Numbered from the stretch's first letter, positions 8,376-52,991 are shown. The stretch is DNA of 64,000 nucleotides from an uncultured Verrucomicrobiales bacterium (GCA_964622095.1 CAZUPP010000001.1:67393-131392), one strand, 5' to 3'. The notes: generated by a model from the sequence alone, not told the origin. Translations and numbers: made by a program.

Positions 8376-8450
8376 TCCAGCGTAGCTCAGCGGTAGAGCA
8401 GGTGGCTGTTAACCACTTGGTCCTAGGTTCGAATCCTAGCGCTGGAGCCA
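8376..8450 (+). tRNA. tRNA-Asn (anticodon GTT)
   Basis: The cloverleaf is readable by eye. Acceptor TCCAGCG/CGCTGGA; D-arm GCTC-AGCGGTA-GAGC; anticodon arm GGTGG-CTGTTAA-CCACT (GTT); variable TGGTC; T-arm CTAGG-TTCGAAT-CCTAG; discriminator G; encoded CCA. Confidence 0.92.
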
Positions 8451-10954: not shown

Positions 10955-11081
10955 GCCACATTCATCTGCGATGAACGAACGTTCATTCTTGGTGCGCCCG
11001 ACACTCCCGCCTCGGCCCGACCCCGCACCCCATCTTTTTTCTCTTTTTTGTCGCCCGAACGTTCCGGACGTCCCGGACGTG
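10955..11081 (-). repeat. Intergenic structured element, copy B (inverted relative to copy A at 52859-52991)
   Basis: On the minus strand it reads ACGTCCGGG ACGTCCGGA ACGTTCGGG, an A-tract, a G-rich spacer, then GAACGTTCGTTCATC-GCA-GATGAATGTGGC. It shares 18-nt and 13-nt identical blocks with copy A. Confidence 0.5.
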
Positions 11082-11329
11082 TCGCGTCCCTCTTTTTCTT
11101 GAGGTAGGTTATACATAGAGGAAGGAAAACCATCCATGGCATGGGCGATGATGATCTCTCGCTTCAGCCGCCTTCTTCCATCCCCATGCCGGCAGTCTCT
11201 CTCACCCCACATCAAGCCCATTTTACCTTTCGGTCAAACCATCGCCAGCTCCTTACTCCCTCATTCTCAACCATCAAAGCAGATGGATTTTTTTCTGTTT
11301 TACCGAATGTTCGGTAAAATGCGCCGCCC

Positions 11330-12490
11330 ATGAATCCCCTCTTCCTCCTTCAGGCTGTCTCCTTCTTCCGGGTATTGGGTGACAGCATGATGGCTCTGGC
11401 CTTGCCTTGGCTCGTCCTGCAATCCAGCGGCAGCGTTTTCTTCACCGGCGCGGTCGCATCCGTCGGGTTGAGCGCCACCTTTCTGGGCGCTCTTTTCAGC
11501 CCATGGATCATGCGTCGGATCGGCTTGCAGGCGTCGATCCTCCTCAGCCTTGGGGCCAGCCTCGCTGGTATTGCCGGTCTCGCCTGGTGTTTTGCCCAGC
11601 CCACCCTCCCGATTGTGGCCCTCTTTCTCTTTGTCCCTCTGGATCGTGGCCTTGATGCCACTGGCAACATCGCCCTGGAAAGCCGGTTCCCTGAGATCGC
11701 CCGTTGCTTCATGGTCAATCTCTCCAGCCTCAATGCCATCAAAGAAAGCCTCGCTCTCGGGGCCATGACTCTTGGCGCTGCCGCGGCGGGAGCCCTGCTC
11801 GCCGCTGCTCCTGGCGCGACCACCCTTCTCTCTGCCGCAGCTCTTACTCTGCTCACCCTCCTTCTCTTTCTCCCCTTATCCCGGCTTTACCGCACCACCC
11901 GGCGGCGATTCATCCCTCCACCTCTCGGGCAAACCGCTCTCTGGCTGTGGCGTCACAAAAAGCTGCGCTCTCTGGTCATTCTTTTGCTCGTGGTCATGGC
12001 CAGCCTTGCGGGGCTGGATGACATCGTGCTCCCCGCCTACATCGAATCGGCCAGCGGCAACCCGGTTCATCTCGGCTGGATTCTCGCGGCCTACGCTATT
12101 GCCGCGCTGATCAGTTCCCTCGCTTACGCCCACTACGCGGCCATGCTTCATCCCGCCCTGCTTATCCGCACCGGCGTCATCGGCGTCGCCCTCTTTTTTG
12201 CCGGCCTCGCTCTGGGTCTGCCGATTCTGCCTATGCTCATCCTCACCTTTCTCAGCGGCCTTCTCTCAGGTGCCCTCGGTCCGGTCATCGATACCAGTTT
12301 CCTGCTGGAGACCCCTAAGATTCATCGCACCGGCATGTTGACCGCCCTGAATCTCCTCGTCACCGGCAGCGCCCCTCTCACCGTCATCCTCTACGCCACG
12401 CTGATCGATCTGACCTCCGTTTCTGTCTTCGGGACCCTCGCGACCGGTATGATCCTGCTCACCTTGCTCCTTCCTTTGCCCAAAAAATGA
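11330..12490 (+). CDS. MFS transporter
   Basis: 386 aa with about 12 hydrophobic helices. The N-terminus LLQAVSFFRVLGDSMMALALPWLVLQ is typical of the MFS_3/EntS-like group. Confidence 0.8.
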   Translation: MNPLFLLQAVSFFRVLGDSMMALALPWLVLQSSGSVFFTGAVASVGLSATFLGALFSPWIMRRIGLQASILLSLGASLAGIAGLAWCFAQPTLPIVALFLFVPLDRGLDATGNIALESRFPEIARCFMVNLSSLNAIKESLALGAMTLGAAAAGALLAAAPGATTLLSAAALTLLTLLLFLPLSRLYRTTRRRFIPPPLGQTALWLWRHKKLRSLVILLLVVMASLAGLDDIVLPAYIESASGNPVHLGWILAAYAIAALISSLAYAHYAAMLHPALLIRTGVIGVALFFAGLALGLPILPMLILTFLSGLLSGALGPVIDTSFLLETPKIHRTGMLTALNLLVTGSAPLTVILYATLIDLTSVSVFGTLATGMILLTLLLPLPKK

Positions 12491-52605: not shown

Positions 52606-52627
52606 TTTTACCGAACGGTCGGTAAAA
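52606..52627. repeat. Perfect 9-bp inverted repeat TTTTACCGA-ACGG-TCGGTAAAA
   Basis: Read directly from the sequence, inside the 943-bp divergent intergenic region. A near-copy lies at 52681-52700. Confidence 0.6.
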
Positions 52628-52680
52628 CGGGAAAGAAACGTGTGAAGCAAGGTGGTTGAAAATGAGGTAGTTAGAGAGAT

Positions 52681-52700
52681 ATTTTACCGATCGTTAAAAC
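52681..52700. repeat. Near-palindrome ATTTTACCGATCGTTAAAAC (related to 52606-52627)
   Basis: It shares ATTTTACCGA and T-C-G-(G/T)-T-A-A-A-A-C with the first site, has no spacer, and has one arm mismatch. Confidence 0.5.
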
Positions 52701-52858
52701 TGGCAAGAGAATCCGCGAGGTGTCAGTGGATGCTGAGCGCGAGAGAAAGTGCATCAGGAGGAGCGGGAGCGGAAGCAGAGCGGCGCTGGGGGCGGAAGGA
52801 TGAATGAGCGGAATGATGGCTCCAGTATCAATATGCCACAGGTCCGGGTGGGATGCAT

Positions 52859-52991
52859 CACGTCCGGGACGTCCGGGATGTCCGGGGCGAAAAAAGTAGG
52901 CGGCGGAGAAAATAAGCTGGGTAAGGGAGAGGGGGGCGGCCAGGCGGAGCCGCCTCGCAACGAACGTTCGTTCAGCACAGCTGAACGTGGC
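52859..52991 (+). repeat. Intergenic structured element, copy A
   Basis: ACGTCCGGG ACGTCCGGG ATGTCCGGG (52860-52886), an A6 tract, a G-rich spacer, the palindrome AACGAACGTTCGTT (52959-52972) and the hairpin CGTTCAGC-ACA-GCTGAACG (52969-52987). A homologous inverted copy lies at 10955-11081. Confidence 0.5.

Follow-up and report, generated by a model that had tools for sequence, protein, structure and literature searches.

The intergenic element at positions 52859-52991 of the window and its inverted counterpart are probably members of a lineage-specific, dispersed composite (mosaic) intergenic DNA repeat, BIME/BOX-like in kind and carrying predicted protein-binding sites. The window is the whole stretch of DNA analysed here, 64,000 nucleotides from an uncultured Verrucomicrobiales bacterium, and corresponds to C1:67393-131392 of a 3.79-Mb, 107-contig, 56% GC draft assembly. 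The original prediction had described an unrecognised structured intergenic element present in two copies. Every part that it gave for the first copy (copy A), that is the 9-mers, the A6 tract, the palindrome and the hairpin, is there to the base. The inverted second copy (copy B) lies at 11080-10959, with 18-nt and 13-nt blocks identical to those of copy A and a hairpin that differs by one compensatory pair (G:C vs T:A) and one G:C to G:T change. Instead of a two-copy RNA, however, what had been recognised is a fragment of a composite repeat that occurs at about 85 loci.

Composition of the repeat family

The repeat is non-coding, about 0.35-0.7 kb long, multicopy and intergenic, and it combines a fixed order of modules with variable module numbers (one or two P3 sites, two to four 9-mers, none to three M2 units). 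Its modules form clusters at 85 loci, all in one invariant order and with zero orientation conflicts: P3 (one or two, 40-110 nt apart), 94-398 nt, M1, 45-273 nt, and M2 (none to three).

P3 is a 22-bp palindrome, TTTTACCGAMCGKTCGGTAAAA, present once or twice per element and at 86-97 sites genome-wide. A search allowing five mismatches or fewer returned 101 sites, and one allowing two or fewer returned 86 vs 0 for the control. The commonest 12-mers of the genome belong to P3, with CGTTCGGTAAAA the commonest of all. M1 is a conserved block of ~86 nt made up of (ACGTCCGGG)x2-4 and phased A-tracts, and there are about 60 copies of it. A stricter pattern for the 9-mer block gave 63 copies, and the array pattern CACGTCCGGRNCGTYCGG occurs 56 times in the genome vs 0 times for the reversed control. 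When 54 copies were aligned on the array, conservation was gap-free from about -37 to +49, with the consensus TAyAAyAAyaTAgCCCAGAAA..GGG.GCGCGAC or GCATC, then (ACGTCCGGG)x2-4, then GTGAAAAAAGTGAAAAAAAGTTT, the last of these holding two A-tracts ~10 nt apart. M2, with about 26 copies and present in only ~40% of elements, consists of GAACGTTCGTTC and a hairpin and has the consensus GAACGTTCG-TTCnnn-GCA-nnnGAA-TG.

The spacers between modules are unalignable across the family and yet share a composition, being purine-rich on the element strand in 45 of the 45 spans measured. These spans, which run from P3 to the last module and in some cases include M2, average 65% purine with a G-C skew of +0.36. 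Within subfamilies, whole elements are 72-85% identical over 420-530 nt, with the alignment beginning ~10 nt before P3. We also found an extra module, AACCACGAAGACACGAAGGGCACGAAG, after M1 in one subfamily and another, GTTGGTTGGTGTTTGCTCGGGTTC, after M2 in a second subfamily; the loci of such modules, downstream of M1, are C22:44315, C28:43692, C40:15193, C40:16825, C16:68225, and C22:55483. Since these modules are shared within subfamilies, the mosaic must have more modules than P3, M1, and M2.

Many contigs end in or near the repeat (e.g., C8:61, C12:166, C17:103, C26:26, C35:120, C37:24, C48:136, and C63:45), and scaffold N-gaps lie inside copies at C6:130 kb, C10:105 kb, and C22:29.6 kb. 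As contigs end, and N-gaps fall, within copies, the copy number of the repeat is a lower bound. Most incomplete loci are at contig ends, showing that the repeats break the assembly, and the repeat is a main cause of assembly fragmentation.

Copies A and B in the window

Both copies are larger units than the coordinates of the original prediction suggested. Their starts are set at P3, 52606-52627 in copy A and 11319-11298 in copy B, because P3 belongs to the fixed module order of the family. Their features are as follows.

Copy A
about 52606-52987, + strand: whole unit
52606-52627, + strand: P3, 22-bp palindrome TTTTACCGAACGGTCGGTAAAA, TetR-operator-type, 1 of the 86-97 genomic sites
52656-52683, + strand: promoter-like pair TTGAAA-16-GATATT, which precedes the degenerate second P3
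52681-52699, + strand: second P3, degenerate, TTTTACCGATCGTTAAAA; a pair of P3 sites 40-110 nt apart is typical of the family
52823-52859, + strand: M1 leader block TATCAATATGCC...GATGCATC, family profile positions -37 to -1 (frequency table of 54 copies, and alignment)
52860-52886, + strand: M1 tandem array of three 9-mers, ACGTCCGGG ACGTCCGGG ATGTCCGGG
52887-52909, + strand: M1 A-tract segment, family positions +27 to +49, with A6 at 52890-52895
52910-52958, + strand: unalignable, purine-rich spacer between M1 and M2
52959-52987, + strand: M2, a GAACGTTC-centred palindrome overlapping the hairpin
52959-52972, + strand: 14-nt palindrome AACGAACGTTCGTT within M2
52969-52987, + strand: hairpin CGTTCAGC-ACA-GCTGAACG, 8 bp with a 3-nt loop

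Copy B
about 11319-10959, - strand: whole unit
11298-11319, - strand: P3 palindrome TTTTACCGAACATTCGGTAAAA (element strand)
11221-11238, - strand: second P3, degenerate, TTTGACCGAAAGGTAAAA
11031-11117, - strand: M1, 68.7 bits with the M1 model
11117-11081, - strand: M1 leader block
11080-11054, - strand: M1 array ACGTCCGGG ACGTCCGGA ACGTTCGGG
11050-11031, - strand: two M1 A6 tracts
10959-10986, - strand: M2, ATGAACGTTCGTTC followed by the hairpin
10977-10959, - strand: hairpin CGTTCATC-GCA-GATGAATG

A pairwise alignment of the two copies shows common blocks with dissimilar spacers between them. The neighbours of copy A are a divergent gene for an acetyl-CoA hydrolase/transferase and a gene for a Cache-PAS hybrid kinase. 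Copy B has the 3' end of a methyltransferase gene on one side and the 5' end of a gene for an MFS transporter on the other. The transporter gene is divergent and begins at 11330, with the P3 of copy B ending ~10 nt before its start codon. Elsewhere in the window, a tRNA gene at 8376-8447 is the sole Rfam match at gathering level.

The P3 palindrome and its TetR homologue

A metagenome scan for the exact P3 palindrome returned nine contigs, with one site each and a GC content of 29-70%. In four of these contigs (L118, L121, L122, and L123), the distance between P3 and the start of an orthologous TetR-family gene is 32-173 nt, and genes for PNPOx-like FMN-binding and GST proteins often adjoin. 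In the same four contigs, which range from 40-70% GC, the exact palindrome TTTTACCGAACGTTCGGTAAAA is conserved as a single operator-type site at a promoter. This pairing of P3 with a TetR gene across unrelated contigs looks like a widespread regulon, and we found no description of such a regulon in the literature looked at.

The genome studied here has a sole homologue of these TetR proteins (C1:42303-42863), which shows 31-49% identity, has TetR_N and TetR_C_13_2 (LmrA/YxaF-like) domains, and carries in its recognition helix an invariant A-GL-KASLY motif. No close solved structure was found for it. Its gene is the second of a two-gene operon (C1:41111-42863; locus L125 812-2564) shared with a gene for a DUF6503 secreted protein, and the start codon of the operon lies 5 nt after a P3-P3-M1 copy. 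P3 thus stands at or near TetR genes both in four unrelated contigs and in this genome, which makes it an operator type, with an amplification of about 90-fold in this genome. From gene neighbourhood, we infer that P3 is bound by the single LmrA/YxaF-like TetR homologue of the genome, and the repeat may have its seed, or its master locus, at the TetR operon.

TetR-family operators of the QacR, LmrA, and YxaF type are palindromes such as TAGACCGATCGGTCTA. P3 and its degenerate partner TTAGACCGATCGGTC resemble them in being palindromes of 18-22 bp with ACCG/CGGT arms and a variable centre, in often being paired, and in adjoining, here and in other bacteria, a gene for a TetR protein with a TetR_C_13_2 domain. 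Ordinary TetR operators number one or a few per genome, whereas P3 occurs in 86-97 copies within a repeat and in all gene contexts, including between convergent genes.

RNA structure and transcription signals

The original prediction spoke of a structured element, and this holds for one part of it and not for another. In an alignment of 23 distinct copies of the M2 hairpin, 98.9% of cells are paired, which bears out the earlier claim that pairing is kept by compensatory changes. Pair 27:35 is AU in 14 copies and GC in 9, and pair 28:34 is UA in 11, AU in 7, and GC in 5. The covariation score is 0.321 vs 0.122 in shuffles, with 0 of 500 shuffles reaching it, and the pairing collapses when the partners are slid. 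The 9-mer block, in contrast, has no covarying structure: the only stem that RNAalifold detected in M1 is the invariant self-complementary part of the array, and it shows no covariation. The copies of M2 are related and fall into at least four or five stem types; template switching at the DNA level could also yield their compensatory changes. Pair 23:39 is G.U in 21 of the 23 copies, so the 8-bp form of the hairpin is limited to the element strand, while the 6-bp core is possible on either strand. This G.U pair and the strong strand asymmetry of the elements would also fit a strand-specific function in RNA or single-stranded DNA.

The mutually exclusive folds proposed for copy A did not generalise. 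The perfect 14-nt palindrome is present at only 8 loci vs 23 aligned copies of M2, so the fold switch is not a conserved property of the family, and riboswitch-like alternative folds are rejected, with the competing palindrome not conserved and covariation confined to the hairpin. The elements are indeed conserved and non-coding, and neither element region has an Rfam match even at E<=5.

Signals for transcription were considered as well. Promoter-like matches accumulate only at the edges of P3 (TAAAAT), where the -35 and the critical T are not conserved, and a conserved sigma-70 promoter is rejected on these grounds. No terminator-like site is present at M1 or M2. What comes after the M1 array is an A-run, and after M2 GAATGnG; an intrinsic terminator, which would need a GC-rich hairpin and a T-run, is likewise rejected.

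These observations bear on the possibility, in our view a rather improbable one, that the repeat is a multicopy non-coding RNA gene or module transcribed from its purine-rich strand, in which the M2 hairpin would stabilise the RNA, serve for processing, or bind a protein. Such an RNA would be in keeping with the compensatory pairs of M2 and its G.U pair, which forms on the sense strand only, with the purine-rich sense strand of all 45 spans (some including M2), with the -10-like TAAAAT hexamers given by the outer edges of P3, and with the random orientation of the elements relative to their neighbours, which would suit an independent transcription unit. It does not sit well with a -35/-10 pair that is not conserved and a hexamer whose critical T is shared by no more than roughly a third to a half of the P3 sites, nor with the lack of an intrinsic terminator after M2. 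Moreover, the best-conserved block, M1, is the one without covarying structure, Rfam has no match, the folding energies of single sequences do not stand out (z of -1.4 and -0.9), and compensatory changes in short palindromes could, as noted, arise by template switching. The composite DNA repeat remains the reading that we prefer.

Gene context and mobility

Gene context was taken from our own crude ORF caller run on the draft assembly. The elements are intergenic, and their orientation relative to the neighbouring genes is random (tandem-antisense 10, divergent 9, tandem-sense 9, convergent 7). With orientation classes this even, and convergent gene pairs among them, we rejected a role as promoter or 5'-UTR of a downstream gene. 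The proteins encoded beside the elements belong to abundant families only (sulfatases, oxidoreductases, AraC regulators, and sensor kinases), with no partner protein among them, and no transposase recurs among these neighbour families.

An alignment of three full-length copies, all of one subfamily, placed the left end of the element at P3; at the right end it passes into unrelated sequence with a fuzzy boundary. No terminal inverted repeats or target-site duplications were visible in these copies. We infer a non-autonomous spread, because the copies are dispersed, the left boundary is sharp, and there is a subfamily structure; what speaks against a mobile repeat is that the analysis turned up neither terminal inverted repeats nor target-site duplications nor a cognate transposase. 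Islands of conserved motif within unalignable spacers are also unusual for a recently mobile element. With no terminal inverted repeats or target-site duplications in the one subfamily aligned, and no transposase among the recurrent neighbour families, the repeat does not match a MITE. Nor does it match a REP or REPIN, since M2 is tagged by neither GTAG nor CGTC and its copies stand alone or in direct tandem, with no inverted dimers.

The genome has a single IS200-type Y1_Tnp gene at C1:44241-44693. This gene is bracketed by a 26-nt direct repeat, AATGCCGTCACCACGCGGCTAATYTG (C1:43825-44722; locus L115 1070-1967), which is found nowhere else in the genome. If this one Y1 transposase moved the element in single-stranded form, as a repeat of the REP/PATE kind, that would explain why inverted terminal repeats and target duplications are absent, why the hairpin conserves its structure, and why the orientation is locked to the strand. 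Moreover, ~3 kb separates the transposase gene from the P3-P3-M1 copy of the TetR locus, the ends of the elements do lack inverted repeats and duplications, the hairpin stem covaries, and orientation is coupled to local skew. Nevertheless, we consider this scenario very improbable, as the transposase gene is flanked by its own 26-nt repeats and not by P3, M1, or M2, as M2 lacks the GTAG/CGTC tag and the head-to-head dimers of REPs (PMC3733652), and as only ~40% of elements have an M2 at all. A link to IS200/RAYT elements in the manner of a REPtron was rejected on the same grounds, the flanks of the Y1 gene being private and free of P3, M1, and M2.

Strand skew around the elements

The orientation of the elements, random with respect to gene direction, agrees with the third-position G/C skew of the neighbouring genes at 45 of 58 loci within 15 kb on either side (p = 3e-5), while the genes themselves follow third-position skew only 52-56% of the time. 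For a profile of this GC3 skew, we used genes of >=300 aa lying >=700 nt from any element and took the sign from the element strand.

GC3 skew as a function of distance
beyond 10 kb upstream: about -0.04
-5 to -2.5 kb: +0.12
-2.5 to 0 kb: +0.22
0 to +2.5 kb: +0.25
+2.5 to +5 kb: +0.16
+5 to +10 kb: +0.09
+10 to +25 kb: +0.035

The effect is equal for genes co-oriented and anti-oriented with the element. Genes within 2.5 kb of an element average a |GC3 skew| of 0.26 vs 0.10-0.11 beyond 20 kb, and the high-skew genes away from elements are mostly at contig ends. First and second codon positions have a skew of only about +0.05. The skew is graded by constraint, from +0.36 in the spacers through +0.25 at third positions to +0.05 at first and second positions, and because of this gradation the data suggest one local strand-asymmetric pressure, against which the motifs have been preserved.

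Several sources for such a pattern were considered and set aside. Replication direction was rejected as the cause of orientation, as the skew of C1 fluctuates over 15-45 kb without replichores and the effect is local. An inversion between copies was rejected as well, as it predicts equal upward and downward jumps at the element, which were not seen. The symmetry of the peak is left unexplained by origin, ColE1-type, transcription, deamination, and inversion models alike. As for a resemblance to iteron origins, tandem 9-mers and A-tracts are present, and no initiator-like gene recurs beside the elements. An orientation bias relative to replication is known for insertion sequences (PMC3971601), and we found no description in the literature of a skew peak centred on a bacterial repeat family.

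As a tentative proposal, the copies might be fixed sites of a strand-specific DNA process (extra DNA-synthesis initiation, nicking, or repair-tract initiation), possibly gated by the TetR protein at P3, which leaves a bias of G over C on the element strand for ~5 kb on each side whatever the direction of the genes. A related reading, and an unlikely one in our judgement, has the elements being or marking start sites of a strand-specific DNA transaction, with the local skew as its footprint. The candidates for this transaction are secondary DNA-synthesis initiation (R-loop-primed, in the manner of ColE1/cSDR), site-specific nicking with single-strand exposure, and polar fork stalling or restart. 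P3 and the TetR protein would provide the gate, the G-richness of the sense strand would help an RNA-DNA hybrid to persist, and the M2 hairpin would be like a single-strand initiation signal on the displaced strand.

Several observations argue for such a transaction. With the clusters themselves excluded and the sign taken from the element strand, raw GC skew within 4.5 kb is positive upstream at 44 of 48 loci and downstream at 45 of 48 (92-94%); the GC3 skew of +0.22 to +0.25 within 2.5 kb decays over ~10 kb independently of gene strand; and long intergenic regions without an element, 266 in all, have no comparable effect (|skew| of 0.108 vs 0.201, p = 5.5e-12). Per-locus skew profiles are sawtooth-like, the window itself has its GC skew minimum at copy B (-0.150 at 8-12 kb) and its maximum at copy A (+0.182 at 52-56 kb), and the effect size is graded by constraint. 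On the other side, the near-field skew is symmetric and positive upstream too, which neither a bidirectional origin nor a unidirectional ColE1-type one predicts, and T/A skew near the elements is close to zero or slightly A>T, unlike what C-to-T deamination of exposed single strands would leave. There is no Rep or initiator gene beside the elements, and the canonical dnaA is elsewhere, at C1:203 kb, with no element nearby. The step in the far field is weak, raw GC skew being higher far downstream than far upstream in 17 of 23 loci (p = 0.02), and the gene models come from a crude ORF caller on a draft assembly.

Distribution outside the genome

The comparison genomes consisted of genomes of the same order and a phylum sample, with none from the same family. 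The exact M1 pattern was found in 0 of 40 same-order genomes. A covariance model of M1 run on 149 same-order genomes gave single matches only, at 22 bits or less, and in a phylum sample of 400 genomes M1 was at background level. P3 was found at 1 site in total across 150 same-order genomes, and none of P3, M1, and M2 was found as a family in the 150-400 related genomes searched. The original prediction had pointed to the genome and its relatives for further copies; dozens were found in the genome by blastn and patterns, but no family in the related genomes. The composite repeat is, as far as these searches indicate, lineage-specific.

In a wider scan of contigs, the matches listed for the three-unit pattern were only single chance ones in high-GC Actinobacteria. 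Viral contigs gave one or two chance matches in coding sequence and none for P3, a plasmid collection gave no match to the element, and a full-text literature search for the motif strings returned nothing relevant.

Comparison with known elements

The BOX elements of Streptococcus pneumoniae are arranged as boxA-boxB(n)-boxC, and mosaic intergenic repeats of this sort (BIME, RIME, and BOX) are the closest known kind to the repeat described here. The likeness, drawn partly from a review of BIME/RIME-type mosaic elements and BOX (PMC3184786), lies in an intergenic, non-coding unit with tens to hundreds of copies in one lineage, in a fixed order of short modules with one module variable in number and linkers that vary, and in the presence of palindromes and protein-binding sites, which in our case are predicted. 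The repeat differs from these elements in that its module sequences are unrelated to theirs, its unit is bigger (0.35-0.7 kb), and its spacers are long, biased, and unalignable. It also has no alternating head-to-head palindromic units, carries a TetR-operator-type palindrome, and has an orientation locked to local strand skew.

M2 can in addition be compared with the GTAG- and CGTC-tagged REP superfamilies, in which a 20-40-nt palindromic unit has a tag at one end (Di Nocera, De Gregorio and Rocco 2013, PMC3733652). Like these, M2 is a short stem-loop whose stem opens with two A-T pairs and varies with pairing kept, and it has a short conserved tail; like the CGTC REPs, it has no dedicated transposase. 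The resemblance to CGTC-type REPs is only a loose one. CGTTCG stands where a REP has its tag, the stem measures 6(8) bp and encloses a 3-nt loop vs 8-9 bp and a 4-5-nt loop, and there are about 26 copies vs >100. M2 is also single or in direct tandem, never in head-to-head dimers, and is always subordinate to M1.

The skew pattern recalls the skew N-domains of mammalian replication initiation zones and the skew jumps at origins, with many fixed sites, a local rise in skew, a slow downstream decay, and a sawtooth shape. Here, however, the peak is roughly symmetric without a jump in sign, and the chromosome is a bacterial one with a canonical dnaA.

Proposed model and significance

Returning to the composite repeat as the preferred reading, we propose that a non-autonomous, BIME/BOX-like mosaic repeat spread through this genome, with the TetR operon's control region as its possible seed. 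The element would function chiefly as DNA, offering several sites for proteins to bind. The TetR homologue would bind P3, with its own operon directly behind a P3-P3-M1 copy, and the 9-bp ACGT-centred boxes beside phased A-tracts would be bound by some factor on bent DNA. Selection would hold the motifs in place, with the spacers drifting under a pressure that is strong, local, and strand-asymmetric, presumably the same one that is seen in the neighbouring genes.

As a class, mosaic intergenic repeats are ordinary, and the family described here makes three unusual additions to it. The amplification of a transcription-factor operator type to about 90 sites predicts that the TetR protein is either a genome-wide binder or titrated by decoys. 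At >90% of loci, the G/C skew of the 9 kb around an element reveals which way it is oriented. By distorting local skew and fragmenting the assembly, the repeats matter for the prediction of origins and the inference of inversions in such genomes. Should the element prove to be the cause of the skew, it would mark a strand-specific process of mutation or DNA synthesis that is localised; were our tentative proposal of fixed sites for a strand-specific DNA process true, the elements would point to an undescribed class of bacterial chromosomal element that organises local strand asymmetry.
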